From positions 1 to 29,193 of the IMG/VR virus record IMGVR_UViG_3300022670_000404: a stretch of 29,193 nucleotides of DNA, one strand, 5' to 3'. The position numbers and the translations under genes were made by a program. The notes below the pieces were generated by a model. The model was not told where the DNA came from. It made no database searches and saw only the letters and a list, made by a program, of their open reading frames with translations. The DNA comes from a virus (Duplodnaviria > Caudoviricetes). Shown here one piece after another: positions 1-24,605 of the stretch (position 1 is the first letter of the stretch; every line of letters starts with the position of its first letter).

Positions 1-2
1 TC

Positions 3-1182: not shown

Positions 1183-1191
1183 TTATAATAA

Positions 1192-1206
1192 CGTTATATT
1201 ATAACA
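1192..1206. promoter_or_regulatory. Palindromic operator, copy 1 (Zur-box-like)
   Basis: CGTTATA-T-TATAACA (14/15 to TGTTATANTATAACA), with right flank TTGC. An extra GTTAT-A-ATAAC palindrome lies at 1182-1192. It sits just upstream of the prohead protease. Confidence 0.75.
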
Positions 1207-2211
1207 TTGCAGACGATGCCCATGTTTCATAAAAATTTTAACTTTGTCATTAAAAATATCTCAGAAGACCCGATTAAGAACATTGGGATTGTAGAGGGAT
1301 TTGCATCAACATTCGGCAATACGGATCGCGAAGGCGATATCATGATGCCTGGCGCATTCACTAAAAGCATTCAAGCGTTGCGATCAAGCAATCAAAAGCT
1401 GCCGATGCTTGCAGGTCACAGAGATCAGATAGGCGGCTTTGACCCGAACGAGATGTTTGAAAATAACATCGGCCTTCAAGTCTCAGGCCAAATTGATTTA
1501 AACATTCAAGAGGGGCGCGAAAAGTATTCATTGGCTAAAAACGGCTTCCTCACAAGCTTTAGTGTCGCATTTTTCGCCAATCGAAAGAACATTGATTTCA
1601 GCGACGATGGGCAAACGCGCTCATTCAAAGAAGTGGAGTTGCTCGAAGTCTCACTTGTGCCAATCCCCGCGAACACAAACGCTGTTGTCACCGAAGTAAA
1701 AGGTGCGATGGCCTACAAGAATTATCCCTTGATGGATCAAGCGACGCCCTGGTCTGGCGAAAAAGCGACCACTCAAATTAAAGACAAAACGGGATCAACC
1801 GACGCACCGTCAGCGACCTATCGCAACGGCTTCATGTGGTTTGATGCAAAGAACGCGGACAACTTCGGCGCTTACAAGCTGCCCTTTGTTGTCGTCGATG
1901 ATGGCTCATTCAAAGCCGTGCCGCGTGCGCTATCAGCTATTGTTGCCGCACTCAAAGGCGGTAGAGGTGGGGTAGATATCCCCGCAGGCGATGTTAATGG
2001 TGTCAAGCGAAACGTCAACGGCTACTTTGCAAAGATGGGCCGTGAGCTACCATTTGGTGATGTCGGCAGTCCAAAGTCATTTGAACGCGATGAGCGATGG
2101 ATTGAGAAGAATGACGAAAGTAACATTATAACATTGCAAAAGTTAGATGGGATGTTATTATCACAAACACTCGATAAATTAATCTTAGAGGTAAGAGATC
2201 ATGTCAACTGA
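1207..2211 (+). CDS. HK97-family prohead protease with C-terminal extension
   Basis: 'VEGFASTFGNTDREGDIMMPGAF', 'LPMLAGH', 'SFSVAF' and 'LLEVSLVPIPAN' are peptidase S78 motifs. The start may be ATG 1216 or 1222. Confidence 0.92.
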   Translation: MQTMPMFHKNFNFVIKNISEDPIKNIGIVEGFASTFGNTDREGDIMMPGAFTKSIQALRSSNQKLPMLAGHRDQIGGFDPNEMFENNIGLQVSGQIDLNIQEGREKYSLAKNGFLTSFSVAFFANRKNIDFSDDGQTRSFKEVELLEVSLVPIPANTNAVVTEVKGAMAYKNYPLMDQATPWSGEKATTQIKDKTGSTDAPSATYRNGFMWFDAKNADNFGAYKLPFVVVDDGSFKAVPRALSAIVAALKGGRGGVDIPAGDVNGVKRNVNGYFAKMGRELPFGDVGSPKSFERDERWIEKNDESNIITLQKLDGMLLSQTLDKLILEVRDHVN

Positions 2212-3565
2212 ATTAGTCGAAAAAGTAGAGAAGCTTTCTAAAGAAATTCACGATGCGCGTGAGGCGTCTGATAGAAATAATACTGAAGCGTTCAAAAAGC
2301 ACGCTGAGGCATCAGCTGACTTGCTGACTGAGGTCAACGCTCTCAAAGATGATCGCACAAAACAGACAAAAGCGATTGAAGAGCTCGAAATGAAGCTCTC
2401 ACGCTTGCCAGGCGAGCAAAAAATTGAAGTTGCGCCTAAAGATGAATATATCAAACATTTTGACGGGTATTTACGGTCAAAAGGCATGACTTCAAAGATG
2501 ACGTCAGAGATCGGCACCCCGATGCTGGACTGGGCAATGGATAACTCCATTGCGCTTAGCATGGCGAACAAAGGTGCAAAAGATTTAATCAAAAAAGATG
2601 TGCTCGAAGGCATTGATCCTCGTGGCGGCTATTGGATTTTGCCCGAATTATCAAGCATGACGGTTGACAAGTTCTACGAGAGCAACCCATTGCGCCAGAT
2701 GGCCAATGTCGTGACCACCAGCTCAAATCTGCTCCGCATGATCATTGACGATCAACTGTCCACGAGCGGCGGATTTGTGGGTGAGATTGAAAGCAGAAAC
2801 AACACTGACACTGCTCAAATTGGCCAAGTCGATATTCCTATTCACGAACAATTTGCGGAACCTCGTGTGACCCATTGGATGCTGGACGATGTAGCCTTTG
2901 ATCTCGTTGGCTGGGTCAATAGTAAAACGATGCAGATTTTCAACTTGTTTGAAAACAGTTCTTTTCTGCAAGGAAGTGGCAGCAAACGTCCCAAAGGTAT
3001 TTTATCTTACGCTAAGTGGACAGGCGCAGCCGTTGTCTTCGGTAATGATGGAGACTATGAGCGTGACGCGCTGGAATATATCACGACAGGAGACGATCTC
3101 ATTCTTAGCTATGATAGCTATGTAAATCTTCAATTATCATTGCTAGAGCAATATCAGCCGGGTGCTGAGTTTCTCATGACGCGTAAAACATGGGCTGATA
3201 CCTTGCAATTGAAAGATTCGCAAAACAGACCGCTTTATGCGCTTGCCAACCTGTTGGCTGAAGGTGCCAATCAAGTCTTGCTCGGTAAAAACGTACGCAT
3301 TGCAGCCCCCACGCAAACCATTAAACAAGAGGGGAGTGATTTCACCTTAGAGGGGATGGGTTCTGCTGGTGATGGAGCGGGTACCGCGGTTGCTATTTAT
3401 GGTGCTTTCAACCCAGGTTATACCATTGCGGATCGCATCGGTTTTGTCACGATTGTTGACATTTTCACGGAGAAGCAATTTGTCAAATACTATACACGAA
3501 AACGTTTGGGTGGAGCTCTCACCAGCTATCAATCGCTCAAAGTTTTAGAAACTACATCAACATAA
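2201..3565 (+). CDS. Major capsid protein, HK97 family
   Basis: Coiled-coil delta-domain-like N-terminus, then 'GGYWILPE', 'FLQGSGSKRPKGIL', 'LKDSQNRPLY', 'YTIADRIG' and 'VKYYTRKRLGG'. Preceded by a GAGG RBS. Confidence 0.95.
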   Translation: MSTELVEKVEKLSKEIHDAREASDRNNTEAFKKHAEASADLLTEVNALKDDRTKQTKAIEELEMKLSRLPGEQKIEVAPKDEYIKHFDGYLRSKGMTSKMTSEIGTPMLDWAMDNSIALSMANKGAKDLIKKDVLEGIDPRGGYWILPELSSMTVDKFYESNPLRQMANVVTTSSNLLRMIIDDQLSTSGGFVGEIESRNNTDTAQIGQVDIPIHEQFAEPRVTHWMLDDVAFDLVGWVNSKTMQIFNLFENSSFLQGSGSKRPKGILSYAKWTGAAVVFGNDGDYERDALEYITTGDDLILSYDSYVNLQLSLLEQYQPGAEFLMTRKTWADTLQLKDSQNRPLYALANLLAEGANQVLLGKNVRIAAPTQTIKQEGSDFTLEGMGSAGDGAGTAVAIYGAFNPGYTIADRIGFVTIVDIFTEKQFVKYYTRKRLGGALTSYQSLKVLETTST

Positions 3566-3577
3566 GAGGAGATTACG

Positions 3578-4015
3578 ATGCCTATTAAAGACAATCGTTC
3601 GAGCATTGAAGCAAGCAATATCATGACGGAAATCGATAAATCAAACGATAGCACTGTATTGTCAAGCATTATTGACACGGCTGATTTCGATGACGGTGTG
3701 ACGTTTGTTTTCAATTTCCTCAAGGCAACTGGCACGCCCTCTATTGTTGTCACCAAGATTGAAGAAAGTGACGACTCAACAATGGCGACCGGCGTAACGA
3801 CAGTGCCAACTGCTAACTTAATCGGGACACTCCCCACTTTAACTGCGGCAGACGCCGAGAATGCCTCACTCAATACAGTTGGGGTCTTCGGCACGAAGCG
3901 CTTTATCCGCGCTGCAGTTGACTTTACAGTCTCCCCTGATCCGGTAGACTTTGTCGCCTGGGTTTACAAGACAGACGAAGTCAAGCCGGCTATTCATCCT
4001 AACGATGGTAATTAA
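3578..4015 (+). CDS. Putative capsid cement/decoration protein (Bbp16-like), paralog 1
   Basis: Lies immediately after the capsid gene, is beta-rich and has an 'S.IDT...ESDD...KRFIRA' pattern like BPP-1 Bbp16-type cement proteins. RBS GAGGAG. Confidence 0.65.
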   Translation: MPIKDNRSSIEASNIMTEIDKSNDSTVLSSIIDTADFDDGVTFVFNFLKATGTPSIVVTKIEESDDSTMATGVTTVPTANLIGTLPTLTAADAENASLNTVGVFGTKRFIRAAVDFTVSPDPVDFVAWVYKTDEVKPAIHPNDGN

Positions 4016-4027
4016 GAGGATATTACA

Positions 4028-4456
4028 ATGCCTATTAAAGACAACCGCTCAAATATTGTTGCAGCCCGTATCAAGCATGAAAGCGATCTAACATCCGATG
4101 TGGGAGTAGAGACAAGCATTATTGACACGGTTGATTTTGACAACGGTGTGACGCTTGTTTTCAATATCATGCAGGCAACTGGCACATTTACTATGACTGT
4201 TTTACAGGTTGATGAAAGCGACGACCCAGGAATGGCGGGCGCAACAAACGTTCCAACTGATAACTTAATCGGGACGCTCCCCATTATAACTGCAGCAGAC
4301 GTCCCGAATGCCTCACTTAATACGCTGGGCGTATTTGGCACGAAGCGCTTTATCCGCGCTGCAGTTGACTTTGTTATTGTCTCGGGAAGAGTGGACTTTG
4401 TCGCCTCGGTTTACAAGACAGACGAAGTCAAACCAGCTATTCACCCTAACGATTAA
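4028..4456 (+). CDS. Putative capsid cement/decoration protein, paralog 2
   Basis: Clear paralog of 3578-4015 with the same MPIKDNRS start and VFGTKRFIRA motif. It has its own GAGGA RBS. Confidence 0.65.
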   Translation: MPIKDNRSNIVAARIKHESDLTSDVGVETSIIDTVDFDNGVTLVFNIMQATGTFTMTVLQVDESDDPGMAGATNVPTDNLIGTLPIITAADVPNASLNTLGVFGTKRFIRAAVDFVIVSGRVDFVASVYKTDEVKPAIHPND

Positions 4457-4468
4457 GAGGATATTGGA

Positions 4469-4906
4469 ATGCCCATTAAAGACAATCGTTCGAGCATTGA
4501 AGCAAACAATGTTTTAACTGAAATTGATAAATCAGTCGATAGCTCTGAATTTTCAAGCACAATTGACACGGCTGATTTTGATAACGGCGTGACGTTTGTT
4601 TTCAATCTTCTCGCGATAACTGGCTCGCCCACTGTTGAGGTCACATCGATTTTCGAAAGCGACGACCCAACATTTCCGGACCCAATAGAAGTGCCAACTG
4701 CTAACTTAATCGGGACACTCCCCATCACTTTAACTGCAGTAGACGTCCCGAATGCCTCACTTAATACGCTGGGCGTATTTGGCACGAAGCGCTTTATCCG
4801 CGCTGTAGTTAACTTTATAGTCTCCCCTGGTACGGCAAGTTTTGTTGCGTGGGGTTACAAGACTGGGGAAGTCAAGGCAGTCATTCATCCTAACGATGGT
4901 AATTAA
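4469..4906 (+). CDS. Putative capsid cement/decoration protein, paralog 3
   Basis: Third paralog, with its own GAGGA RBS. Confidence 0.65.
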   Translation: MPIKDNRSSIEANNVLTEIDKSVDSSEFSSTIDTADFDNGVTFVFNLLAITGSPTVEVTSIFESDDPTFPDPIEVPTANLIGTLPITLTAVDVPNASLNTLGVFGTKRFIRAVVNFIVSPGTASFVAWGYKTGEVKAVIHPNDGN

Positions 4907-4917
4907 AAGGAGGCTTC

Positions 4918-5598
4918 ATGTCAGGCTTTGCAGGAGGGTTAGGCTACGCGTCTGATCCTCTTTTCATGCCCAACAGGCGATTCTCGAAAGTCTATACGTA
5001 TGACGTATTGACGCCGCCCGCGGAGTTGCCCGTCTCACTCGCACTCGTTAAGGAACACTTACGTCTTGATTCAGCTGATACCTCACAAGATGCCTACCTG
5101 ACGCTTCTTATTAACGCATCCCGTCAGTTCTTTGAAAAGTTCACTAATCGCATTTTAATCAACACGCAGTTTCGCACCTTCTTTGATTGTTTCCAGCAAT
5201 CTTTTGAGCTGGCACGTTCAAGGCTCGTCACACTCGATGCTTACGAATATCTAGTTGATGGGACGTTTACCGCCGTTGATCCGAGTATTTTCTACGCAAC
5301 GTTTGAGCGCAACTATTCACGCGTCATTATTGAGGAGGTCGATAACTTCCCAACGGACAAAGATGACAGGTTTCAATCGATCCGCATTGATCTGACATCA
5401 GGCTTTGGCGCAGCAGACACTGATATTCCGTCCGACATTCAAATAGGCTTGCTCAATCAGATTGCCTCCCTCTATGAGAACAGAGGCGATTGCGGGGCGT
5501 GTGATTGTTCAGACATCAGTAATTTACCCGTAGCTACGCAGAATGTGTATCGGCAGTATCGTATTGAAACAGTTTACGGGCAACCTTACAGGGGGTAA
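4918..5598 (+). CDS. Head-tail adaptor/connector (gp6-like, phiE125 gp8 family)
   Basis: 'PPAELPVSLALVKEHLRLD...YLTLLINASRQFFEKFTNR' and 'DIPSDIQIGLLNQIASLYENR'. RBS AGGAGG. Confidence 0.88.
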   Translation: MSGFAGGLGYASDPLFMPNRRFSKVYTYDVLTPPAELPVSLALVKEHLRLDSADTSQDAYLTLLINASRQFFEKFTNRILINTQFRTFFDCFQQSFELARSRLVTLDAYEYLVDGTFTAVDPSIFYATFERNYSRVIIEEVDNFPTDKDDRFQSIRIDLTSGFGAADTDIPSDIQIGLLNQIASLYENRGDCGACDCSDISNLPVATQNVYRQYRIETVYGQPYRG

Positions 5599-5602
5599 TA
5601 AT

Positions 5603-6115
5603 ATGAGTGTAGTAGCAGTAAAAGTATATGATGATAGAATTGAAATGGCGGCCGATTCTCAAACGAACGTGGGAAGCTATAGAAGTGCCTCAGCTAGAAC
5701 GGGGAAAATAATAGAAGGCATCGATTGTATTATTGGCATTGCGGGCAGTCGTAGTTGCTCATTGCTTGCAAAGCAGTATTTTGAAGGCCATCCTATTCTT
5801 CCTTTAACAACTTCTAATAAAGCGGGCAAACTAACCTTAAAATTTGACGAATTTAGACAATGGGCAAAAAACGAATTTAACTATGATATATACGATAAAT
5901 GCCACTATTTGATCGTGACTGATTGTCATGCCTTTATTATATATGAAACGGCGGCAGAAGAAATAACAGATTATGTAGCGATAGGATGCGCTCATTATTT
6001 AGCAGAAGTAGGATTGATGTTGGGTCATAATGTCAAAGATAGCGTAGCGGCGACGTGTGAAATGTCAAATGACTGTGGTTTTCCCGTCATCACTAAGACG
6101 ATTAATTTTCAATAA
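5603..6115 (+). CDS. Ntn-hydrolase fold protein (proteasome beta/HslV-like peptidase)
   Basis: Start ATG 5603 follows GGGGG. The 'MSVVAV...MAADSQ...K...IIGIAG...YVAIGCA..LA' pattern parallels proteasome-beta/HslV motifs (T1, AADS, K33, AIGSG). Confidence 0.6.
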   Translation: MSVVAVKVYDDRIEMAADSQTNVGSYRSASARTGKIIEGIDCIIGIAGSRSCSLLAKQYFEGHPILPLTTSNKAGKLTLKFDEFRQWAKNEFNYDIYDKCHYLIVTDCHAFIIYETAAEEITDYVAIGCAHYLAEVGLMLGHNVKDSVAATCEMSNDCGFPVITKTINFQ

Positions 6116-6124
6116 AGAGGTTTA

Positions 6125-6265
6125 ATGTTAATGCTAAAATTTTCACCAAAAAAAGACAGCAAAGAAGGCGTTCATACGTTTAAAGACAAGTATCCTGTTG
6201 AGACGAACGCTAAGCGAAAGCTTGCCAAGAAAAGATTAAGCCTTATTAAAGGCTATAAAGGGTGA
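6125..6265 (+). CDS. Small basic hypothetical protein (46 aa)
   Basis: Translates as MLMLKFSPKKDSKEGVHTFKDKYPVETNAKRKLAKKRLSLIKGYKG. It has an AAGAGG RBS at 6115-6120 and fills the gap before the head closure gene. It is below the ORF-track size cutoff. Confidence 0.55.
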   Translation: MLMLKFSPKKDSKEGVHTFKDKYPVETNAKRKLAKKRLSLIKGYKG

Positions 6266-6268
6266 TTC

Positions 6269-6667
6269 ATGGCCACTTGCAAGAAATTAACGCGCACAAA
6301 AACGCAAGTCTGCATTGGCTCACTCAATCGTAAGATTGATATTTTTACGCGCAACATTACAGCGCCCTTGAATTCAATCAATACACTGGTCGACTACGGT
6401 GAAGACTTCACCCTGCTGGCGTCTGTCTTTGCAATGATTGAAACACCTAAAGGCAAGACTATCTTTGATGAAGTCGGCACGGAAAAGATTGTGACGCATG
6501 TTTTCTCAATCCGCGCCATTGCGAACCTAACCAGCGAGAATTGGATTGTCTATCAAAGCAATCGCTATGACATTCAGATGATCACTGACTTGCAAGAAAA
6601 TGTACTATTTCAGCAGCTCTTTGCGATCATTCGCGGTGCAGATGCGAGAGAGGCAACCAAAGCATGA
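6269..6667 (+). CDS. Head closure / head-tail joining protein (SPP1 gp16-like)
   Basis: 'IGSLNRKIDI...VFAMI...VTHVFSIR...WIVYQSNRYDI' pattern and synteny. Confidence 0.8.
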   Translation: MATCKKLTRTKTQVCIGSLNRKIDIFTRNITAPLNSINTLVDYGEDFTLLASVFAMIETPKGKTIFDEVGTEKIVTHVFSIRAIANLTSENWIVYQSNRYDIQMITDLQENVLFQQLFAIIRGADAREATKA

Positions 6668-7116
6668 GACTTAAAATCATTGCTCACAATCAGAAAAGCT
6701 TATATCGTCTCGTAGGGCTTGAAGCTAAATTCAAAGCGGGCATCTATCAAGCCTATATTGATATCGCTAAATATTTGAAATCAACGGTTAAGAAGGACTT
6801 AAACGATGAAAAACACGGCCGCCTTTATATTCGCCGTCTTGCTGGTCGTGTGGTGCGTCACCGTGCAAGTGCGCCAGGCGAGCCACCCGCAACATTCACG
6901 GGCAAGCTGGAACGCTCAATTTCAACTAAAACATCCGGCTATAGAGACCTAGACTTTTCAGCGGGCGGCAAGGACGTCAATTATGCCGGTTTCTTAGAAG
7001 ATGGCACACGGCGCATGGCCAAACGTCCTTATATGATACGATCTGTCAAGCAGAACGAACGCAACACCATTGAGGCCTTTTATCGACATATTAGCGTGAA
7101 AATCAATGAAGCTTAA
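6664..7116 (+). CDS. HK97 gp10-like neck/tail completion protein
   Basis: 'HRASAPGEPPATFTGKLERSI' and 'YAGFLEDGTRRMAKRPYM'. Confidence 0.85.
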   Translation: MRLKIIAHNQKSLYRLVGLEAKFKAGIYQAYIDIAKYLKSTVKKDLNDEKHGRLYIRRLAGRVVRHRASAPGEPPATFTGKLERSISTKTSGYRDLDFSAGGKDVNYAGFLEDGTRRMAKRPYMIRSVKQNERNTIEAFYRHISVKINEA

Positions 7117-8227
7117 GCCAATCATCAATCAAATGGCAAAGTTCTTACCGTTTTTTAGCGATAAGTTCACTGATATTGCAACCATTTCAAGCATTTCAGC
7201 AGCAAGTGGTATTGTCAGCGTCACAACAACTGCCCCGCATAATTTAAGCGTTTCTGAAACGGTCGTCATTTCAGATGTGGTCGAGCAAGTCGTGATTGAT
7301 AGCCTTGAGCTTGACGCGGCCACCAATCAAGTGACGTGCCGCACAAGCGTTGATCACGGGCTGGTTGAGAACTTCAACTTTAAAACGCGCAAAACAACCG
7401 ATGTGACCGTAGAGATTTCAGGCGTTTTTGACATTGGGTTTAATGGCACGTTTGAACTGGTCAGCGTCCCTAATAGGTTCGCCTTCATCTATCAACTGAC
7501 AGCAGACCCAGCAGGGCCACCTACAGGCACAGGCATCTTAGCTGATTATACGTTCAATATTTTCAATGGCGCTCAAATTGTCGCAAGCGTTCCAAGCACC
7601 ACCACCTTTACCTATGCGATTTCAAGCACAGCCACCATCTTGACATTTAATACAGGCAAGACGCATTCCAACTTTCGCATCTCAGCAAGTGTTAATCTTG
7701 AGCGGATACTCGCCAGCTATACCAAAAATGCCCCTGATAAATGGTGGCTTTTTATCACACAAAATAGCTCGGTTGCCTCAAAGAATCGAGAAATACTCAA
7801 TGACAGCATCACGACTTATCGCGTCAATCATCAGACTTATCGGCAGAGACTCATTGAAAGCCTCAATATGTTTGTCATTGTGCCTACGGCAGATGAACTC
7901 AGCGCACGCAATGCAATTGATGAATTAGAAGATGTTAAAGTGGCGATCTTTCAATCTTTCTTGCGTTTCCCGGCGAGCGCCCAGTATGATGCGGACAATG
8001 GCACTGATAACCAGTTTGTCTATACGTATAACTCATCGGAAGTGATATTTTATAATACGTCCTTTGTGGTGTATCAATACATTTTTGACACAAACTATGA
8101 TGTCACCTATTTTGATACCTTCTCGCCCAACCTCTTTGCGCCATTCAGAGATATTGCGATGACGCAGGCAATCAACGACTTCGACTTTGTTTCAAACATT
8201 GATTTAGATGTTGACCCTGATTTTTAA
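7106..8227 (+). CDS. Probable tail terminator/neck protein with inserted small beta domains
   Basis: Lies directly before the sheath gene. The N-terminal half has two 'T..H.L...V.ISG..FNG.F.V......F.Y' (FCCH-like) units. Confidence 0.55.
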   Translation: MKLKPIINQMAKFLPFFSDKFTDIATISSISAASGIVSVTTTAPHNLSVSETVVISDVVEQVVIDSLELDAATNQVTCRTSVDHGLVENFNFKTRKTTDVTVEISGVFDIGFNGTFELVSVPNRFAFIYQLTADPAGPPTGTGILADYTFNIFNGAQIVASVPSTTTFTYAISSTATILTFNTGKTHSNFRISASVNLERILASYTKNAPDKWWLFITQNSSVASKNREILNDSITTYRVNHQTYRQRLIESLNMFVIVPTADELSARNAIDELEDVKVAIFQSFLRFPASAQYDADNGTDNQFVYTYNSSEVIFYNTSFVVYQYIFDTNYDVTYFDTFSPNLFAPFRDIAMTQAINDFDFVSNIDLDVDPDF

Positions 8228-8230
8228 GAA

Positions 8231-8245
8231 TGCTATATTATAACA
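8231..8245. promoter_or_regulatory. Palindromic operator, copy 2 (Zur-box-like)
   Basis: TGCTATA-T-TATAACA (14/15), followed by an extra TAACA. It lies in the 38-nt gap before the sheath gene. Confidence 0.75.
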
Positions 8246-8265
8246 TAACATGATGAGGTAAAAAA

Positions 8266-9816
8266 ATGGCGATTGTATCCAAACCTAAAACGACTTTTAT
8301 CCTAACCGAAGTGCCTCAACTGGTGGATAATGCGCCTCAGCGCATTTTAATCATTGGGCAGCAAATAACAGACCAAAGCACTGTTGACAAGCTCGTTAAA
8401 AATATTGAGATAGGCGCAGAAGATACTTTATTTGGTCGTCAAACGATGCTCGCAACGATGATCCGATCTTTTCGGAAGCTCAATACGCTCAGCCAAGTTG
8501 ACGCTATTCCTTTGAACGATCCAGCCGGCACCACAGCCGAAGCAACGATAACGATTGAAACAGGAACAATTAGCCAACCCACGTCGATTGATTTTTTTAT
8601 TCAATCCAAAGATTTTAAATTCGAAATTGATCTGCTCGTGGGCGATGATGAGAGTGATATTGCTACTAAGATAGCCGCTGCCATTAATGCTAATGATGAA
8701 ATACTTGTAACAGCAGCACAGGTTCTAGGTGTCGTGACGTTGACGGCAACGAATAGTGGTGAAGAAAATAATGCTATCTCAATTGAATTCATCCAAAAAT
8801 CCTTTAGCGGTCTAACTGTAACCATTGTGGGGTTCGCGGGAGGTACGCTATCTCCAGACATTTCAAACATTTTTACACAAATTTCAAATATCCGCTATCA
8901 AACGATTGTCTATCCCGCATCCTACACTAAATCAACCATTAAAAATCTGTTAAATACTCGCTTTAATACGACAAATGCGGTCTTGGATGGTGTCGCAATT
9001 GCCTCTCAAACCGACAGTTTAGGCGATCTTGAAAGTGAAGGGCAAAGCCTGGACTCACTCAGTATGGTCATCCTCGGGAATAGGGCATCAAGTGGTAGCT
9101 CCACACTGACCCAGCATGCTGGGTCAGCCTTATTTGAGTACGACCCTTCGATTGCGAGCTATACGGCAGCCCTCAGAACACTACGATTAACGGAAAATGC
9201 AAATGTTGCAAACATTGTGATAGGCGATCAAACGCAATTTGGTGGCCCACAATTCGCCTCGATCCCTTACTTCAACACGCCCGTTGAAACACTCACTGTC
9301 ATTGAAGAAGAGCGCGGCTGGAAGGCAGACGATCAAGAGTCATTGAACGATAACGGGATCGCTTTCCTAGGCAACAATACTTCAAGCACCCGTATTATAT
9401 TCGGCGCAATGGTAACCACTTATCTAACGAATGGCGTCGTCGATGATACGACTTTTAAATTCTTGAATACAGTGGACACAGGCTCACAAATTAGAGAATT
9501 CTATTTTAACAACAATAAATCAAATTACGCGCAAAGTGTCTTGACGTCAGGCGATATTGTCCCAGGCTCTCGTCAAGTTGATGTAGCCTCTTTTAATTCA
9601 TTCCAAGAGAAATTATACAAGGATTTATCCGTGCAACCTTTTGCGCTAACCGTTGCGGGAAGTGCGGCCCTTGATTTCTACAAAAATAATATTAATACCA
9701 CATTTACACTTTCAGCGGGGCTTGTCTCAGTGACGATGGTAGTCCCCATTGTAGTACAGCTACGAGAAATCGATGCAACTATTCAAATAACTTTCGATAT
9801 CAACACAACAACTTAA
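8266..9816 (+). CDS. Contractile tail sheath protein (Mu gpL-like)
   Basis: 'QRILIIGQ', 'LFGRQTMLATM', 'IAAAIN...VTLTA' and 'MVTTY...DTTFKFLNTV'; 516 aa; synteny. Confidence 0.88.
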   Translation: MAIVSKPKTTFILTEVPQLVDNAPQRILIIGQQITDQSTVDKLVKNIEIGAEDTLFGRQTMLATMIRSFRKLNTLSQVDAIPLNDPAGTTAEATITIETGTISQPTSIDFFIQSKDFKFEIDLLVGDDESDIATKIAAAINANDEILVTAAQVLGVVTLTATNSGEENNAISIEFIQKSFSGLTVTIVGFAGGTLSPDISNIFTQISNIRYQTIVYPASYTKSTIKNLLNTRFNTTNAVLDGVAIASQTDSLGDLESEGQSLDSLSMVILGNRASSGSSTLTQHAGSALFEYDPSIASYTAALRTLRLTENANVANIVIGDQTQFGGPQFASIPYFNTPVETLTVIEEERGWKADDQESLNDNGIAFLGNNTSSTRIIFGAMVTTYLTNGVVDDTTFKFLNTVDTGSQIREFYFNNNKSNYAQSVLTSGDIVPGSRQVDVASFNSFQEKLYKDLSVQPFALTVAGSAALDFYKNNINTTFTLSAGLVSVTMVVPIVVQLREIDATIQITFDINTTT

Positions 9817-9826
9817 TAGGTGAATT

Positions 9827-10204: not shown

Positions 10205-10216
10205 TAAGAGGTTAAA

Positions 10217-10869: not shown

Positions 10870-10874
10870 CCATC

Positions 10875-12581: not shown

Positions 12582-13828
12582 TGAGCGATCTTGTTTTAGC
12601 AACCTTTCAAACCGCCTCCTTCCGCGGTGTCGACTTCTTGTTTAAGAACAACAAGCAAGTGGGCGGCCGAAAATATAAAATATTTGAATACCCGAACCTT
12701 GATCAACGTTTTGTCCAAGACTTGGGCACGTTGCAACGCACCTATCACATGACAGCGACAATAGCTGACCCCAGTTTCAATTACCAGAACAGCAAATTTG
12801 AATTGATCAAAGCACTTGAGACGGAAGGGCCAGGCGTGTTGGTGCATCCAACGGACGGCGTTAAGACGGTCTTTGCTATGCCTTATACGCTAGATGAGGA
12901 TATTTCATACACAGGCACCGCGATCTTTACGCTCATTTTTGTGGAGACTGGCCCACAACTTTTTCCCAATCAATCGCCAAGTGCTAACTCAACGATTGCT
13001 AACATTATTAATAATTTTATTAGCATTATCAATGCTAACTTTAATAGTCTATGGAAAACATTTAGCCAGTTTCAAGGCAATATTCAATTCAGTGCGGACC
13101 TTATCCAGTCAACAGTGGATCAATTTAAAAATGCAGGTAATCTAGTCAGCAGTAACGTCACCGCGATTAATAATTTTACTGAGGAAGTAAGCAGCCTAGA
13201 AGATAATAAATATACCTTGGCACAAGATGCGGACGGCCTATCAACTAACATTGCTGACATCTTTTTTGAAGCGGGTGAATTAGGTGAGAGTACAACAGAC
13301 AACCTATTAATCATGCAATCTATGTTTGCCTATAGCGGGGCGGACCCCGTCAATCAAATAACCGTGCCAACCGCGCAGCGCGAAGTCAACCGCATTATCA
13401 GCAATCAATTGATGAATGCACAAAGCTTAGCTTATTATTATTTGTTCATGGTGAACACTGAATTTGATAATGAAGATGATATCAATGAGCAGAAAGAAAT
13501 TACCAATAATCAGTTTTTCTTCATCATTAATGCGAATAGCTACACAAACATCTTGGGTAACTCAAGTCAGATATTAAACAATGAGACCCTTGATCTGCTG
13601 GAGGAGCTCAGAATAAATGCCAATGATGCGCTGGATGCGCAACTGGCAACCGCCCGAAAAGTGATTGAGACCAACATTGGGAGAGGCTCACTTCTCTCCA
13701 TTGTGTTTGATTATTATGGAGACGTTGACTTGTATGATGACATCTTTGAATTAAATAATTTAACAAGCCCTGCAAACTTAAGCGGCACTCTTAAATTATT
13801 GAGCAATGTAGGTGAGGTAAACGTATGA
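12581..13828 (+). CDS. Mu gpN-like 'DNA circularisation' / tube initiator protein
   Basis: 'ASFRGVDF...GGRK..IFEYPN...VQDLG...LETEGPGVLVHP' and a C-terminal LysM-like 'SLLSIVFDYYGD...IFELN' segment. Confidence 0.88.
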   Translation: MSDLVLATFQTASFRGVDFLFKNNKQVGGRKYKIFEYPNLDQRFVQDLGTLQRTYHMTATIADPSFNYQNSKFELIKALETEGPGVLVHPTDGVKTVFAMPYTLDEDISYTGTAIFTLIFVETGPQLFPNQSPSANSTIANIINNFISIINANFNSLWKTFSQFQGNIQFSADLIQSTVDQFKNAGNLVSSNVTAINNFTEEVSSLEDNKYTLAQDADGLSTNIADIFFEAGELGESTTDNLLIMQSMFAYSGADPVNQITVPTAQREVNRIISNQLMNAQSLAYYYLFMVNTEFDNEDDINEQKEITNNQFFFIINANSYTNILGNSSQILNNETLDLLEELRINANDALDAQLATARKVIETNIGRGSLLSIVFDYYGDVDLYDDIFELNNLTSPANLSGTLKLLSNVGEVNV

Positions 13829-14991
13829 AGCTACGCATCAACGGCATTGACTTTGTGGGATTCACACACATGGAAGCCTCACGCTCATTTTTAAACATTG
13901 CGGGTAAATTTTCATTCTTAACCTCTCCCAAAGATTTAGCAAACAACGGCTATCCTATCAAGGTACAGCAAGCGTGTGAAGTAATCGTTGAAGATAAGAT
14001 ATTCATCACTGGATTTATTGAAAAAATTAACATCATGCAAACGGCTAACGATGTTTCAATTCATGTCGCTGGGCGTGATAAGACGGCTGACTTAGTCGAC
14101 TCAACGGTTGATTTTGACATACTAGGGAACGGTGAGTTTACTAATGCCATTACCCTTAAGCAAGTGTGTGAAGAAGTCATTGCTAACCTTGGCATTACAG
14201 GCATGAAAGTTATTGATTTAGTCAACCCAGCTATCTTTTCGAGTGGAAACTATATCGCGCCTGTCACGGGAGAGGGCGCTTTTGATCTGATTGAAAAATA
14301 CGCCAAAAAAAGACAAGTGCTGCTCACGACAGACGGGCTCGGCAATGTGGTGATCACGCAAGCGATCAGCGGAAAATCAAGAGAGCACACGCTGCAAACC
14401 AATCTAATCAATGCTAAGAATGGAAAAAATAATAATGTAGTTCATATGCACTCTATGTTGAATACTGAGAATGAATTTAACTTATACCGTGGCTATTCAC
14501 AGCTTGCAGCCACCACCATCAATGCGTCTTCTAATCCGGGTGGCGCGGGCTCTAATATCACGCCGGATTATTTGTCACACCAAAGCGGCGAGATTACAAA
14601 TGATGCCATCCGTTCCAGTCGGCAACTTGTTTTTATAACCAATACGCCCGTCGACACTGAAACGATGAAGCAGCGTTGCATTTGGGAGAAAAACTACCGA
14701 CGCGCCAAGTCTCAGTTCTATAATTGCGCAGTCTCAGCCCATACTTATAATGGGATAGACATTTGGCCGGTCAATGTGCTAACTAAAGTTTTTGATGACG
14801 TGGCGAACATCACAGGCACGACGATGCTTATTGATCATGTGGCTTTCACGGAGAGCGTCGAAGGCGGCAAGCAGACGCAATTAAATTTAGTTGATAAACT
14901 GTCATACAGTCTACAAACCCAAGCCAACTACCGTGAGGCACTTTCCGAGAGTTTGCAAGACGCTTATTTTACAAGAGACACTGATAACTGA
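13825..14991 (+). CDS. Baseplate hub protein (Mu gp44/gpP-like)
   Basis: 'LRING..F.GF...SRS...AGKFSF', 'ITGFIE', 'VAGRDKTADLVDST' and 'LLTTDGLGNVVI'. Confidence 0.9.
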   Translation: MKLRINGIDFVGFTHMEASRSFLNIAGKFSFLTSPKDLANNGYPIKVQQACEVIVEDKIFITGFIEKINIMQTANDVSIHVAGRDKTADLVDSTVDFDILGNGEFTNAITLKQVCEEVIANLGITGMKVIDLVNPAIFSSGNYIAPVTGEGAFDLIEKYAKKRQVLLTTDGLGNVVITQAISGKSREHTLQTNLINAKNGKNNNVVHMHSMLNTENEFNLYRGYSQLAATTINASSNPGGAGSNITPDYLSHQSGEITNDAIRSSRQLVFITNTPVDTETMKQRCIWEKNYRRAKSQFYNCAVSAHTYNGIDIWPVNVLTKVFDDVANITGTTMLIDHVAFTESVEGGKQTQLNLVDKLSYSLQTQANYREALSESLQDAYFTRDTDN

Positions 14992-15578
14992 TGCAAGCAT
15001 TAATTACTATCCTTAGAAATATTATTACACGCTCAAAGACAGTCGACGATCAAATTGATAATAATTATAGCTACTCCGTCAATATTTCAACCTACGGTCA
15101 GACCACCAACAGTGAAGCATACTATCCTTACGGTATGGCCTCGCGTGCGCCTAAAAATTCAGTGGCGATCACTTTTTTAATAGGCGGCCAGCCTGAGAAC
15201 AAGACCAGCTTTTTATACGATCCGTCTACCCGATTTACGGGGCTTGAAGTAGGCGAAGTAATTATCGGCAATCAGATCAAGCAAACTTTTATTAAATTCA
15301 ATGAAGACGGTACGATTGATATTCAAACGGACGACACGCTGACTGTGAAAGGTAATCAGATTATTAGTGGCAATCTCACCGTCAAAGGCTCAAATGTTGT
15401 GATGGACGGCGATGTGTTAATCAAGGGCAATTTAATCGTTGAAGGCAATATCAATGGGGATGGCGAGATCACAGATGCCAACACAAGCCTCAGTACAATC
15501 CGAACCACTTACAACAGCCATGATCACCAAGACCCTGTGGATGGAACGACCAGCACTCCTAATCAAATGATCCCCTAG
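14991..15578 (+). CDS. Baseplate spike protein (Mu gp45-like)
   Basis: 'YPYGMASRAP', 'GLEVGEV', beta-helix repeats 'LTVKGN' and a C-terminal 'YNSHDH' HxH metal-binding tip. Confidence 0.88.
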   Translation: MQALITILRNIITRSKTVDDQIDNNYSYSVNISTYGQTTNSEAYYPYGMASRAPKNSVAITFLIGGQPENKTSFLYDPSTRFTGLEVGEVIIGNQIKQTFIKFNEDGTIDIQTDDTLTVKGNQIISGNLTVKGSNVVMDGDVLIKGNLIVEGNINGDGEITDANTSLSTIRTTYNSHDHQDPVDGTTSTPNQMIP

Positions 15579-15593
15579 TATCAGCGCCTATTA

Positions 15594-15608
15594 TGTTATA
15601 ATATAACA
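15594..15608. promoter_or_regulatory. Palindromic operator, copy 3 (Zur-box-like; contains extended -10 TGnTATAAT)
   Basis: TGTTATA-A-TATAACA is a perfect match and ends 2 nt before the gp46 ATG. Confidence 0.8.
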
Positions 15609-15610
15609 GC

Positions 15611-16084
15611 ATGAGTGGTACACCCGTTGATTTAAAATTAGATGAGAATTCAGACGGCTTCTTTGATTTAACGATCAATGACGATGGCGATTTTACGAGC
15701 TTGGACGGCTTAGAGACGTCCTTGACCGTTTCATTTTTCACCGACCGCAGGGCGGCTGAAAGTGAGGTCTCGAGTCCGCAATACCGGCGCGGGTGGTGGG
15801 GAAATCTAGTTAAAGCGGATACTGACCCTGAATTGGGTTCAAAAATATGGCTTCTTGATCAAAGCCCGGTCGCACAAATTACGCTCAATAATGCCATTGC
15901 CCACACAAGAAACGCCTATCAATGGCTGATAGACCTTGATTTTGCGGACCGCGTGGAAGTATCAGGTTCAACAGATAGGAACACTATTTTTTTAATCGTC
16001 AAAATTATTAAAGACAATAATATCATCAGTCAACAAGTCTTTGATCTGTGGCAAAATACGGTAAGCGAGATAAACAATGCCTAA
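15611..16084 (+). CDS. Baseplate protein (Mu gp46-like)
   Basis: 'GLETSLTVSFFTDRRA...RRGWWG...LGSKIWLL...AYQWLID'. Confidence 0.92.
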   Translation: MSGTPVDLKLDENSDGFFDLTINDDGDFTSLDGLETSLTVSFFTDRRAAESEVSSPQYRRGWWGNLVKADTDPELGSKIWLLDQSPVAQITLNNAIAHTRNAYQWLIDLDFADRVEVSGSTDRNTIFLIVKIIKDNNIISQQVFDLWQNTVSEINNA

Positions 16085-17390
16085 CATTACATTCCCACGC
16101 CTGGAAGAAGTCATCAAGCGGATGCAGACGGACGTACAAAAAGAGCTCCCTAACTCAAATCCGTATCTGCCCAATTCTTATCTCAAAGCAATCATCACAG
16201 GGCTTGCAGGACGGAACTTTGAAAATTTTAATGAGTTGCAATCCTTATTAAACAATCTTTTTCTGACAACCTCAATTGGTTTTTTCATTAGTGAGTGGGG
16301 ATCAATCTATGGTTTAACTCAGATTAATGCAACGCGAGCGTCGGGCAACATCACCGTCACAGGTGATGTAGGTACGGTAATTGACAGTGGCGAAGTGTTG
16401 ACATCTACCACTTCCAAAGAATACACCACCAGCGAAGATGCACTGATTTCAGCGGTCAATGAAAATGTCACGCTCACTTTTACAGGAAAAACAATTACAG
16501 CAACGACTCAAGATGGTCATGATTTTGCAACCGGCATTGATGTGACGATAAGCGGTGCCACCGGAATCAATGGAGTTATTTACAACGGGACTTTTGAAAT
16601 TACGGTACTCGATGCCGTGACCTTTATCTATTCGGTGCTTATAACGCCTACGTCCGACGATAGCGGGATCGCGAGTGCGGACATTGCCTCAATCAATGTG
16701 GAGTCCACGGACTTTGGCAGCGATCAAAATTTGAGCAGTGGCGATACGCTCACTTTTCAATCAATTATTGCGGGCGTTGATAACAATGATGGCATTGTCG
16801 GTGCTGATGGTATTATTGGTGGCAAAGATGCAGAAACAGACGAAGCTTTCAGAGATCGAATTTTAAACCGCATCAGAAACCCCGTTGCACAATTCAGTGA
16901 AAGTGCGATCACTCAACAAGCATTGCTTGTGCCAGGTGTCACACGCGTCTTTGTACAGCCCATCACGCCCGCCCCAGGTCAAGTTACCGTTTATTTCGTG
17001 CGCGATAATGATGCAGATATCATCCCGGACAGCGGGGAAGTGGCAGACGTGCGACAATCCATCCTAGTGATTTACCCCGCTTCGAACGATCCCGTTGATC
17101 TATTTGTCAAAGCACCAACGCCTGTTCCCGTCGATTTTACTTTTGATGAGCTGGAGCCTGACACGTCTACCATGCAAGAGGCGATTCAACAGAACTTGCA
17201 ACAATTTTTTGATGATAATGCGGGTGTTGGCGATGACATCCTACAGCTCGGTTATAATTCCGCGATCTTTAGCACGATTGACCCACAGACTGGCAATCAA
17301 GTCACTGACTTTTTACTGACAACGCCACTAGGTGATGTCACTATTCAATCTAACGAAATAGGGCAGCTCCGCAATGTTACGTTCACCTAA
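16077..17390 (+). CDS. Baseplate J / Mu gp47-like wedge protein
   Basis: 'ATRASG', 'GGKDAETDEAFRDRIL', 'VPGVTRVFV' and 'GQVTVYF'. Confidence 0.92.
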   Translation: MPNITFPRLEEVIKRMQTDVQKELPNSNPYLPNSYLKAIITGLAGRNFENFNELQSLLNNLFLTTSIGFFISEWGSIYGLTQINATRASGNITVTGDVGTVIDSGEVLTSTTSKEYTTSEDALISAVNENVTLTFTGKTITATTQDGHDFATGIDVTISGATGINGVIYNGTFEITVLDAVTFIYSVLITPTSDDSGIASADIASINVESTDFGSDQNLSSGDTLTFQSIIAGVDNNDGIVGADGIIGGKDAETDEAFRDRILNRIRNPVAQFSESAITQQALLVPGVTRVFVQPITPAPGQVTVYFVRDNDADIIPDSGEVADVRQSILVIYPASNDPVDLFVKAPTPVPVDFTFDELEPDTSTMQEAIQQNLQQFFDDNAGVGDDILQLGYNSAIFSTIDPQTGNQVTDFLLTTPLGDVTIQSNEIGQLRNVTFT

Positions 17391-18060
17391 CCCACAAGAT
17401 TATCTCCCCCTTGGGAAGGATAAAAACGCGCAATCCTACGCGGACTTGATGCCCCGCAACAAGAAATTATGGGCAAGCGTCAATATTTCAGATACGATTG
17501 TCCGAAAGTTTTTAGAAGGCTTAGCCGGTGAATTAGACAGCTTTCAGGATTTAGAGTTTGTTATTGCATCAACGTACATTCCAAACTTTGATGATAGCAT
17601 GATTGATCGCTGGGAAGAGCTTGTCGGCATCCCTGACAAATGCTTTCCCAACGATGGCACCGATGCTGAGAGGCGACGAAATATCATCATCAAGCTAGCT
17701 TTCATGAATCTGCAAACCCAGCAAGATTATTTTGATTTGGCCGCCATCTTAGGGTTGACGATAGAGATCAGCTATGCCGATACCAATGATGCTTTCACCT
17801 ACACTTTCCCGGTCACGCTCTTCACCAAAAAAGAGGCACAGTTCACCTGGTTCATCAACATTATTGAGGAGAATTTAACCCAATTCTCCTACACATTCCC
17901 GATTGCGTTTGAACAAACAAACTCGGCACTTTTTCAGTGCATTTGTGAGCAGCAAAAGAATGCGTCCACCAACCTTATCTTTACTTTTGAGCCCGTCATC
18001 TATATTGATGGCGCTAATGATATCTATACAGACGGTGACGGCAATGAGTATACGCCATGA
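17374..18060 (+). CDS. Baseplate protein Mu gp48-like (DUF2313/YmfQ)
   Basis: 'DLMP...W', 'MIDRWEELVGIPDKC...ERRRNI' and 'YFDLAAILGLTIEI'. Confidence 0.85.
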   Translation: MLRSPNPQDYLPLGKDKNAQSYADLMPRNKKLWASVNISDTIVRKFLEGLAGELDSFQDLEFVIASTYIPNFDDSMIDRWEELVGIPDKCFPNDGTDAERRRNIIIKLAFMNLQTQQDYFDLAAILGLTIEISYADTNDAFTYTFPVTLFTKKEAQFTWFINIIEENLTQFSYTFPIAFEQTNSALFQCICEQQKNASTNLIFTFEPVIYIDGANDIYTDGDGNEYTP

Positions 18061-18069
18061 GAATTATTA

Positions 18070-18084
18070 TGTTATACTATAACA
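18070..18084. promoter_or_regulatory. Palindromic operator, copy 4 (Zur-box-like)
   Basis: TGTTATA-C-TATAACA is a perfect match in the 46-nt gap before the tail fibre gene. Confidence 0.8.
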
Positions 18085-18106
18085 CTATTGACGAGAGAGG
18101 TTTTAC

Positions 18107-19051
18107 ATGAAAGACGTGCCTACTAAAAATACGGGTGATGAGCTAAGCGCAAATGAATACAGCTTGTGCACGTCGCAAGAATGCCAAAACCAAGTGAAAA
18201 ATACGGGTCAAACGCTCTCTGAGGCCAATCTTGAGCAGCTGACTCAAAGCACTGTGTTGGTTGGCAATAATGCCATCGGCTATGAGGATACGACAGGCGT
18301 GGTAAGCAATAATTATTTATTATCAGTGCGTACTCAGTTTAATAATGTCGCACCTACCTCTCTTTTTAATGGTTTTAATATCTTTTTTGAAGTTGTCAAT
18401 GCTAATACGGGCGATGTCACGCTCAACGTTGAAAGCTTAGGCGTCACGTCGCTTGTTGACTCACAAACCCAACAGCTAGCGGCAGATACGCTTGTGCCTA
18501 ATACCACGAACTATGCTTTTTATGACGGCACTAACTTTGTGTTGGGATTAATCAATGCAACCGATGCAGCGTTTAAGGCGGCTCTTGCTGATCAAGATAT
18601 ATCTACTCAAGGTGATAAGCTTGTGGGGCATACGGGCGAGACTGTTTTTTCAGCGATTAATGCTAGACCAACAAGCACGACGTTATCTGCCAATGGTGGC
18701 GCGGCTTTAATCGGAACGACTTCAAGCGATACGGTGCAAGATGAATTGGATAAAACATTAATCACTATCGCGTTTGGAGGAACTGATAATTCCACTCTTC
18801 TTTTTGGTTCCGGCGTAAGTTTTATCAAAGGAGGTCCTGACCTGGGCATATATGAGTTTACTTTTACAGTCGCAGAGCCCGATACTAATTATATTATACA
18901 GGCAATATCTATTGCAGATGGTGGCGATCAAATGGCTAATGCAGCCTTTAAAACTACAGCAGGATTTACTATACGCACATTTCAGCTCGGGACCGCTATT
19001 CCCATTGATACACTCTTCATTGACTTTACAATATGGCGAGCTAGGTCTTAA
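18107..19051 (+). CDS. Short tail fibre protein
   Basis: Follows gp48. It has a baseplate-anchor-like N-terminus, an 'NTGDVTLNV..LG' domain, a 'GAALIGT...TVQDELD' neck and a C-terminal small beta-sandwich. Confidence 0.7.
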   Translation: MKDVPTKNTGDELSANEYSLCTSQECQNQVKNTGQTLSEANLEQLTQSTVLVGNNAIGYEDTTGVVSNNYLLSVRTQFNNVAPTSLFNGFNIFFEVVNANTGDVTLNVESLGVTSLVDSQTQQLAADTLVPNTTNYAFYDGTNFVLGLINATDAAFKAALADQDISTQGDKLVGHTGETVFSAINARPTSTTLSANGGAALIGTTSSDTVQDELDKTLITIAFGGTDNSTLLFGSGVSFIKGGPDLGIYEFTFTVAEPDTNYIIQAISIADGGDQMANAAFKTTAGFTIRTFQLGTAIPIDTLFIDFTIWRARS

Positions 19052-19614
19052 CTATTCCAAGCGTAAGTATATTCAAATAAATCCACGTCGACAGCAAGAG
19101 AAGCGCTTTTTATGGGGTTTCCGCTATCAACAATAGTTTTGACAGCATTTATAGTTCCTGTGTATAGCTCCACTGTGCTAGGCTGATTTTCAATATATTT
19201 ACCGCCGTAAAAATGAATGGCGTGTGCTTTTATATAATCATTATTGTCAAAAATTCCATAATCAAAATCATCCCCATTGACAGTTAAATATACCTTTCCA
19301 TTGCCTCCACTTGCAATAATTAAGAAATTAGTTTTAGTATCTGATACGAGCTGCCCATCAAACACTCCTTTTAGAATAAATGTTCCTTCAAAAGCGGTTG
19401 TTAGAGAAATATTTTTAAGATATAAATTCCCTGTGTCCGCCTCAAACCAAACTTGTAAGTCATTTACATTGCAAACAAAATAATCCCGATCAAGGTCGGT
19501 CGGCTGAATTAGAACGTGACATTTATATTCAACTGGCTGAGTTGTCGTTTTCGGCTTAGCAAATGTAATGCTTGACACTAAAAGAGAAAAAACAATTATA
19601 CAAATAATCTTCAT
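19048..19614 (-). CDS. Secreted hypothetical protein, paralog A (moron)
   Basis: Signal peptide ending ITFA|KP. AT-rich and antisense to the virion operon. Paralog of 19625-20158. Confidence 0.75.
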   Translation of the reverse strand: MKIICIIVFSLLVSSITFAKPKTTTQPVEYKCHVLIQPTDLDRDYFVCNVNDLQVWFEADTGNLYLKNISLTTAFEGTFILKGVFDGQLVSDTKTNFLIIASGGNGKVYLTVNGDDFDYGIFDNNDYIKAHAIHFYGGKYIENQPSTVELYTGTINAVKTIVDSGNPIKSASLAVDVDLFEYTYAWNS

Positions 19615-19624
19615 ATTACACCCT

Positions 19625-20158
19625 TTAATTATTTATTGAATAAGAAGAATAAAAAATATCTACATTAACAACAAGCGATGAATTTAGATCGGCTCCTGTT
19701 TTATAAGCTTTAATATCACCTGTATAGTTCAAAATGACGTTCCCAGTGCCATAACTGTTTATATTCATAGCATCTACATCCATAGAATCTTGGCTGTGCA
19801 TCATCCCATCACGATTATCAAACCCATTAGTTGTTAAATAAAAATTAACTGCTTGATCAAAAGTAATTTGTTTTACATAAGTATGAGGGATAATTTGACC
19901 ATTAAATACGCCGCTAATAAAATAAGAGGCTGTAAAATGAATTTGTGAATTAGCTATAATATAAAGTGTTCCCGTGTTTGCTTTATATAGAACCGCTAAA
20001 TCTTTCACATTACACAAAAAATAATCAGCATCGTAATCAGTGGGCTGAATTGTGACATGACATGTGTATTCGATGGGGACTACAGAGCTTGGCTTAGCAA
20101 ATGCGGGGGTGATGAGTGTCAGCATGAAGCTAAAAAGAATAATTGACATGATACGCAT
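19625..20158 (-). CDS. Secreted hypothetical protein, paralog B (moron)
   Basis: Signal peptide ending AFA|KP. Shares 'P.EY.CHV.IQPTD.D.DYF.CNV.DL.V...A.TG.LY' with paralog A. GAGG RBS. Confidence 0.75.
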   Translation of the reverse strand: MRIMSIILFSFMLTLITPAFAKPSSVVPIEYTCHVTIQPTDYDADYFLCNVKDLAVLYKANTGTLYIIANSQIHFTASYFISGVFNGQIIPHTYVKQITFDQAVNFYLTTNGFDNRDGMMHSQDSMDVDAMNINSYGTGNVILNYTGDIKAYKTGADLNSSLVVNVDIFYSSYSINN

Positions 20159-20368
20159 AGGGATTACCTCTTTTATAATTATTATTTAACATAAGCCGCG
20201 AGTTACGGAAATAACAACAAGCAAAAACCTACGCTCGCTGCTTATGAATGCACCAGAAATATATAAATGATTTAAAGCCATAGCTTCAGGCGCAAGCCTC
20301 GCATCAAAAACATATTCTATGCTTATTAGAGCATGGAAAGGTGAGGATGTCCAGGATTATTATTTGAT

Positions 20369-20440
20369 TGTCTCCGACGGGAGTTGAACCCATGTTAACG
20401 CCGTGAAAGGGCGCTGTCCTAACCACTAGACGACGGAGAC
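20369..20440 (-). tRNA. tRNA-Glu (anticodon TTC), CCA not encoded
   Basis: The minus strand reads GTCTCCG-TC-GTCTAGTGGTTAGGAC-A-GCGCC-CTTTCAC-GGCGT-TAAC-ATGGG-TTCAACT-CCCGT-CGGAGAC-A, a full cloverleaf with a perfect 7-bp acceptor stem. Confidence 0.93.
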
Positions 20441-20472
20441 ATTATACCTGATCGAATTCGACCAGTTATAGA

Positions 20473-20489
20473 AGTGCGGACTCCGCACT
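20473..20489. repeat. Perfect 8-bp inverted repeat in the tRNA leader region
   Basis: AGTGCGGA-C-TCCGCACT. A second near-palindrome, CTGATCGAATTCGACCAG, lies at 20448-20465. Confidence 0.6.
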
Positions 20490-20537
20490 AAGGATAGCCA
20501 GCTACTCATTAACTTTCCTTGATACCTTATATTGCAA

Positions 20538-20552
20538 TGTTATACTATAACA
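20538..20552. promoter_or_regulatory. Palindromic operator, copy 5 (Zur-box-like), in a divergent intergenic region
   Basis: GCAA-TGTTATA-C-TATAACA has a perfect core and lies between tRNA-Glu (-) and the 1024-aa gene (+). Confidence 0.8.
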
Positions 20553-23650: not shown

Positions 23651-23849
23651 AGGCTTGTTATGAAAGAATGGTTAGGTAATAATGTTGTGATTTGCACATA
23701 GACTTTAGTCAGTTATATTAGCAATCTCAATTAAATAACAAGCAGCATTAACGGTAGATCGAATCGTTGCAGCAAACACCGCTGTTCTAGCCTTGATTAC
23801 TAAAAAATAGTATAATACTGTCGTATCCTAATACTAAAAGAGGTAAGTT

Positions 23850-24595: not shown

Positions 24596-24605
24596 CAGCC
24601 AATTA

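Follow-up and report, generated by a model that had tools for sequence, protein, structure and literature searches.

The virus record IMGVR_UViG_3300022670_000404 (Duplodnaviria; Caudoviricetes) was analysed as a whole, and its 29,193 nucleotides, which represent an approximately 54% complete genome, are referred to as the window. By family profiles the record encodes an HK97-type head and a Mu-like contractile tail, and copies of the palindrome TGTTATA-N-TATAACA stand at the starts of its virion modules. This palindrome has the core of the gammaproteobacterial Zur box, the DNA site of the zinc sensor Zur. Considering the fit of the sites to the Zur operator, their overlap with predicted promoters, and the location of the same sequence in bacterial genomes, it is probable that the Zur of the host represses the late promoters of this phage.

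With TGTTATANTATAACA and up to two mismatches allowed, six matches are found in the whole record, at 1192, 8231, 8236, 15594, 18070, and 20538, against a mean of 0.16 and a maximum of 1 in 100 dinucleotide shuffles. The match at 8236 (two mismatches) overlaps the 8231 site. The other five, referred to as the main sites, are those of the original prediction, and their mismatches to TGTTATA-N-TATAACA (one at 1192, one at 8231, and none at 15594, 18070, and 20538) were confirmed, as were the intergenic position of all five and the A immediately 5' of each core. They precede the genes for a prohead protease, a tail sheath, a gp46-like baseplate wedge, a 314-amino acid (aa) protein, and a 1024-aa protein. 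The predicted association with structural genes holds for the first three, while the names 'tail fibre' and 'appendage' proposed for the last two are derived from gene position. A sixth, degenerate copy at 2119-2133 lies within the protease gene, 67 nucleotides (nt) upstream of the capsid ATG; it has three mismatches to the strict 15-mer and two to the Zur 20-mer described below, and shares TATAACATTGCA with the 1192 site. The statement that no full copy occurs inside a coding sequence or in the early region remains correct for full copies, but it overlooked this degenerate one. The right half, TATAACA, is identical in 6/6 sites, and no copy occurs in 23651-29193. No piece spanning the 18070 or the 20538 site was found among the contigs listed from two other studies. 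Among sequencing runs, the best match to this DNA is a marine sediment metagenome, possibly the one it came from, and the runs listed as containing it include none of RNA.

In the gammaproteobacterial Zur box consensus the 15-bp core is the central part, as had been claimed (PMC2706843). A structure-based motif for the binding of two Zur dimers in Escherichia coli, TGWNAYRWTATAWYRTNWCA, extends this core by an arm of 5 bp (PMC4219657, PMC6103462). All six sites match TGWNAYRWTATAWYRTNWCA at one or two mismatches. No other position in the record fits the motif at ≤ 2 mismatches, and the shuffles yield a mean of 0.46 matches with a maximum of 4. The fit to TGWNAYRWTATAWYRTNWCA is a stronger test than the core, because the arm lies outside the palindrome and is not required by a -10 element. 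Two mismatches to the 20-mer are found in each of the putative operators 1 (1187..1211; core 1192-1206, extension TTGCA), 4 (18065..18084, + strand; core 18070-18084), 5 (20519..20552 including a predicted promoter, + strand; core 20538-20552, left extension TGCAA), and 6 (2119..2138, the degenerate copy at the 3' end of the protease gene). Operator 2 (8211..8250 including a predicted promoter, + strand; core 8231-8245, extension TAACA) has one mismatch, and operator 3 (15589..15608, + strand; core 15594-15608) has none to the 20-mer of the review and one to that of the original paper.

The promoters described here are consensus matches and are therefore predicted ones. In four of the five main sites the left half of the palindrome is an extended -10 element (TG-n-TATAAT, TATACT twice, and TATATT), including a perfect one, TGTTATAAT, in operator 3 and TGTTATACT in operator 4. 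Matches to the -35 consensus at 5/6 positions are present at 8231 with 17 nt spacing and at 20538 with 16 nt spacing, which gives predicted promoters of TTGACC and TG-extended TATATT within 8211..8250, and of TTGATA and TG-extended TATACT within 20519..20552. The 1192 site has lost its own TG, and there the palindrome sits over the predicted start site of a sigma-70 promoter of the protease/capsid module at 1162..1189 (+ strand; TTGACG, 16 nt, TATAAT). This promoter agrees with the consensus at 11/12 positions and is the best match in 1-20000. Overlap with a -10 element or a predicted start site is thus seen at five sites, and is weak at 2119, where a weak internal promoter match (2102-2129) lies near operator 6. 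It is likely that some protein operator overlies the virion promoters, because the invariant right half falls outside the promoter consensus, and because near-consensus promoters of the host type in front of virion genes would need a brake.

The same sequence is associated with zinc genes in bacteria. The phage-derived 20-mer, with ≤ 1 mismatch, has five matches among 401 gammaproteobacterial genomes, and 5/5 are at zinc genes: three at zur/znuA, one at the gene for a DksA, and one at that for a ZnuD-like receptor (the protein names at genome matches are best matches, several of them under curated cut-offs). The DksA carries the motif CxxT-x17-CxxA, which defines the zinc-free DksA2 type (PMC8456098), and its site has a central C, as do two of the phage sites. 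The perfect core was found in 4/121 genomes, twice at zinc genes, once at a HigB gene, and once with no open reading frame found nearby.

Among cultured genomes with a name, a related prophage was found only in that of Fangia hongkongensis (44% sheath identity). Two Fur-family genes are present in this genome. It has one core match (≤ 1 mismatch), upstream of a znuA operon that ends in a Fur-family gene. Within the order of Fangia, a core match is present in 24/41 genomes, and nine of the 22 newly examined loci are at zur, znuA, cobW, ZIP, or DUF1826 genes. The outer flanks of these sites vary, in agreement with PMC5786701. In Francisellales genomes, Zur-core sites are also conserved between glyoxalase and Vut_1 transporter genes (L536, L539, L540), and these are candidates for unreported Zur targets. 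The other five genomes with a related sheath are metagenome bins with mixed labels, which provide no firm host, and cultured phages, with sheath matches of 25-31% and exonuclease matches of about 30%, provide no host clue. The identification of the phage sites as Zur boxes in the original prediction is therefore strengthened by the two-dimer fit at six sites, the zinc-gene matches, and the Fangia znuA box, and is qualified by the outer GAAA/TTTC flanks of the 23-bp consensus, which are kept only partly in the phage and are also unconserved at the Francisellales zinc-gene sites.

If the sites are Zur operators, the phage would have a gammaproteobacterial host with a Zur of this type. Zinc-loaded Zur would bind each site as two dimers and sterically block RNA polymerase at the six late promoters, keeping the virion genes off. 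Release might take place by two routes. When zinc falls, apo-Zur would leave the DNA, which would make lytic output zinc-gated; or replication would multiply the six sites beyond the Zur pool, which would act as a timer at any zinc level. Either route would provide a late switch without a phage-encoded late activator. Zinc-shortage release and titration release cannot be told apart from the sequence. That zinc is a real input to late-promoter control is a tentative proposal, and titration or plain silencing with no role for zinc is rather unlikely.

Several observations weigh against the assignment to host Zur. An exact TNWCA arm is present in only 1/6 sites and TNNCA in 4/6, and the six arms, which represent three sequence classes, are not independent of one another. 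A palindrome centred on an extended -10 element has the form TGN-TATA-N-TATA-N'CA, which leaves one free position, so that one in four such palindromes would equal the Zur core. In a gammaproteobacterial genome, a perfect core lies 3 nt upstream of a HigB-like toxin gene (L471, 1501-1515), and the 15-mer alone is therefore not Zur-specific; this copy may be either an antitoxin operator or the site of a zinc-controlled toxin-antitoxin system. The Francisellales zinc-gene sites mostly lack the arm (TNNCA in 1/11), which places the phage sites closer to other gammaproteobacterial forms, and the Fangia prophage (G141) lacks the site. In one species, only 4/11 predicted Zur boxes were confirmed (PMC6103462). 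Viral sequences in general show no enrichment of the perfect core, which occurs in about 890 viral stretches, while two control palindromes occur in about 1400 and about 370. The intergenic share of the core does not exceed that of the TGCTATA control (90/111 versus 85/101), and an apparent intergenic bias over another control (61/110), which vanished in this comparison, was dropped. Its tie to structural genes is not significant (6/59 versus 2/46, p = 0.46).

The relatives of the phage add to these points. A single-sequence search of viral contigs for sheath relatives found none, and the relatives considered here came from alignment-based searches. The box is not conserved among them: 0/50 whole relative records have more than one match at ≤ 1 mismatch. 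A match at ≤ 2 mismatches is present in 11/50, never above two per record, and one record alone has a 1-mismatch match. The closest capsid relatives (50-59% identity) lack the box, among the matches listed; the closest relative compared as DNA has 59% capsid identity. In 17 relative records, 0-3 scattered matches each to the Zur 20-mer were found. Seven of 17 relative records (G095, G096, G097, G110, G116, G144, and G099) carry a repeated palindrome of their own, a count made without a null; three of the seven palindromes exceeded shuffles. For example, AACTG-N4-CAGTT in G097 stands before the portal, protease, capsid, and sheath genes, and TGTWCAA-N3-TTGWACA in G095 before the protease and sheath genes. 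Some of these palindromes cluster also in non-structural regions. Such genome-specific palindromes are the pattern that fast-changing phage repressors would give. They suggest that the controlling protein has been swapped in evolution while the promoter positions were kept, and the proteins that bind them could include other host regulators. In two relatives (L215, L216), the strand changes past the hub gene, and the spike, baseplate, and fibre genes are encoded on the other one.

The rival that best survives, although an unlikely one, is that a dimeric repressor or Fur-family protein of the phage itself, encoded in the part of the genome that the record lacks, uses the palindrome as its operator and directly silences strong late promoters, and that the likeness to the Zur box is a convergence on the extended -10 element. 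The original prediction had named a phage-encoded dimeric regulator as its alternative. The use of other palindromes at the same junctions in the relatives, several of which encode helix-turn-helix (HTH) or Phd-type proteins, is the best argument for it. The G095 palindrome has an exact match in 0/251 proteobacterial genomes, which says little, as its host may fall outside this set. The perfect core before the HigB gene, the incompleteness of the record, and the six copies with arms of their own in an unrelated phage fragment (G016, see below) point the same way. Such a repressor would, however, leave unexplained the fit of six sites to the Zur two-dimer register and the location of all five genome matches at zinc genes. 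No Fur-family or HTH gene is found among the proteins of the record at its present completeness, and no Fur-family gene among the 143 of 216 small unlabelled proteins scanned in five relatives. Moreover, the box is not specific to the lineage, since zinc regulons of hosts and phages unrelated to this one have it as well, and in a host with this Zur type the sites would probably be bound by host Zur anyway.

Single viral copies of the core often stand before replication or recombination genes of large phages, and many of them resemble ordinary promoters. A TNNCA arm follows the Zur core in 15/90 intergenic viral matches, compared with 1/61 and 4/85 in the controls (p = 0.003 and 0.014). In viral records < 100 kb, at least two copies are present in 13/81, compared with 4/89 for the controls (p = 0.02); this comparison drew on 100/121 test loci and 50/120 plus 50/120 control loci, not all of which yielded a record, records ≥ 100 kb were dropped, and a terminal-repeat duplicate (G051) was scored as single. 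Substitutions allowed by the Zur motif, 6C or 7G, are present in 15 of the 30 listed one-mismatch second sites by hand count, with ten further matches outside those 30. A subset of the viral cores thus looks like Zur operators. In unrelated phages the core is found before portal and protease-like genes (G304), capsid and tail fibre genes (G067), and a scaffold gene (G309), and before the terminase gene twice in G312 and twice in G307/G308; these cases were chosen after inspection and are illustrations rather than a test. The G305 region has no BLAST match among cultured phages. The phage fragment G016 (L303) has six copies of CATGTTA-N5-TAACATG within 2552-14968, in leaders of divergent genes and of packaging genes. 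With their own CATG arms and a poorer fit to the Zur 20-mer (2-3 mismatches), these sites may belong to a regulator of its own.

That the sites act simply as strong promoters, with a duplicated extended -10 element and an AT-rich stretch downstream, and involve no protein operator, is very unlikely. Such an explanation would account for the TG-n-TATA[A/C/T]T in four of the five main sites, for the -35 matches at two of them, for the single viral copies before replication and recombination genes, for the equally intergenic control palindrome, and for the plain -10 elements that relatives have at the same junctions. It does not account for the invariance of TATAACA outside the sigma-70 consensus, or for the 1192 site, where the palindrome, without its TG, has been retained over the predicted start site of a better promoter located upstream. 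In addition, near-consensus promoters, if unrepressed, would not be late.

It is highly improbable that host Zur activates these promoters, or that the sites are decoys which sequester Zur and thereby induce zinc uptake by the host in infection. Activation by Zur is known in some bacteria (PMC2490734, PMC6103462), and six strong sites per genome would titrate Zur after replication. However, overlap with the -10 element or start site of specific genes is the arrangement typical of repression, whereas the activation described so far depends on sites that are upstream or of another kind (PMC6103462), and decoys need not stand at module starts.

Two other identities of the palindrome were considered. 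The LexA box has a spacer one base shorter than that of this palindrome, and was rejected on that ground. A P2 Ogr-type site, TGT-N12-ACA, was rejected by its spacing.

The genes at the sites are all on the + strand. The prohead protease gene (1216..2211; PF04586, phrog_80) has an alternative TTG start at 1207 and is followed by the gene for the HK97-type major capsid protein (2201..3565; PF05065, phrog_10). The tail sheath gene (8266..9816; phrog_165) opens a run of sheath, tube, tape, hub, and spike genes. The Mu gp46-like wedge gene (15611..16084) is followed by baseplate J and gp48-like genes (PF07409, PF04865, PF10076). Its ATG is 2 nt past operator 3, with no visible ribosome-binding site (15589-15613), and the wedge transcript is possibly leaderless or near-leaderless. 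The 314-aa gene (18107..19051) is a likely tail fibre gene from its position, its homologues in relatives coming after the baseplate genes, and the 1024-aa gene (20576..23650) likewise probably encodes a virion appendage; neither has a family match in PHROGs, Pfam, or NCBIfam.

Among the other genes, three tandem paralogues of phrog_5707 follow the capsid gene (3578-4906, + strand; 68-71% identity to the first), and are probably head decoration or connector proteins. An HslV-family peptidase gene (5543-6115, + strand) lies among the head-tail genes. On the minus strand the record has RecE, RecT, and CsrA genes, the last at 25246-25506 and present also in the relatives G095 and G097. Two AT-rich, similar-looking genes with signal-peptide-like starts (19048-20158, minus strand) oppose the tail genes and have no family match. 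A tRNA-Glu(TTC) gene (20368-20441, minus strand) is divergent from the 20538 site. This palindrome may drive or control the tRNA gene and the two genes behind it, because it also reads as an extended -10 element of the minus strand. Further TATAAT elements in short imperfect palindromes, at 23805-23820 and 24222-24240, precede a RyR-domain gene and a 112-aa gene, and neither palindrome matches the Zur box. The phage would be temperate, judging from a related provirus.

The proposed operators resemble known Zur targets in several respects. The six sites fit the 20-bp pattern of the two-dimer operator of E. coli znuABC, zinT, L31p, and pliG (PMC4219657), the 15-bp core is that of the gammaproteobacterial box (PMC2706843), and the putative operators overlap -10 elements as those of Yersinia Zur targets do. 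They differ from Zur regulons in that the genes concerned are virion modules, not those for zinc uptake or zinc sparing, and in keeping the outer GAAA/TTTC flanks only in part.

Host repressors on phage late promoters and Zur control of mobile DNA are both already known. The late promoter P3 of the Bacillus thuringiensis phage GIL01 is repressed by host LexA with gp7, so that, as proposed here, a host repressor in place of a phage one acts on a virion-gene promoter (PMC6182141). LexA, in contrast, senses DNA damage and acts there on one late promoter with the phage cofactors gp7 and gp6 (PMC6182141), whereas in the present phage a metal-sensor box is repeated at six module starts with no known cofactor. 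Zur control of the Vibrio cholerae island VSP-II (verA), shown by reporters, similarly involves a host Zur box on horizontally acquired DNA, and the Zur core occurs there in a variant form, TGTTATGTTATAACA (PMC8248653). As a genomic island, however, VSP-II carries genes for chemotaxis and regulators rather than for phage morphogenesis (PMC8248653). A literature search of titles and abstract openings, in which subscription journals were thinly covered, found no Zur-controlled virion operon.

Short sites dispersed in a phage genome, mostly intergenic, are also represented by the stoperators of mycobacteriophage L5 and the conserved inverted repeats of phiC31, which are the targets of repressors that these phages encode and are distributed over early regions. 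In contrast, within the half of the genome that was sequenced, the sites of the present phage occur in late modules only, and they match a host box.

Late timing in tailed phages is usually ascribed to phage activators, antiterminators, or sigma factors. Zinc is scarce in many waters and is withheld by animal hosts. It is possible, and should be taken as a tentative view, that in several unrelated phage lineages virion assembly came independently under the zinc sensor of the host, with Zur boxes at portal, terminase, capsid, and tail promoters as a zinc-gated late regulon in place of a phage late activator, and that abundant host repressors might be borrowed more widely as nutrient gates or copy-number timers. 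If the control by host Zur is true, particle output in this phage would be tied to zinc supply, each virion module being controlled by a metal sensor of the host, or would be set by a simple timer through repressor titration.

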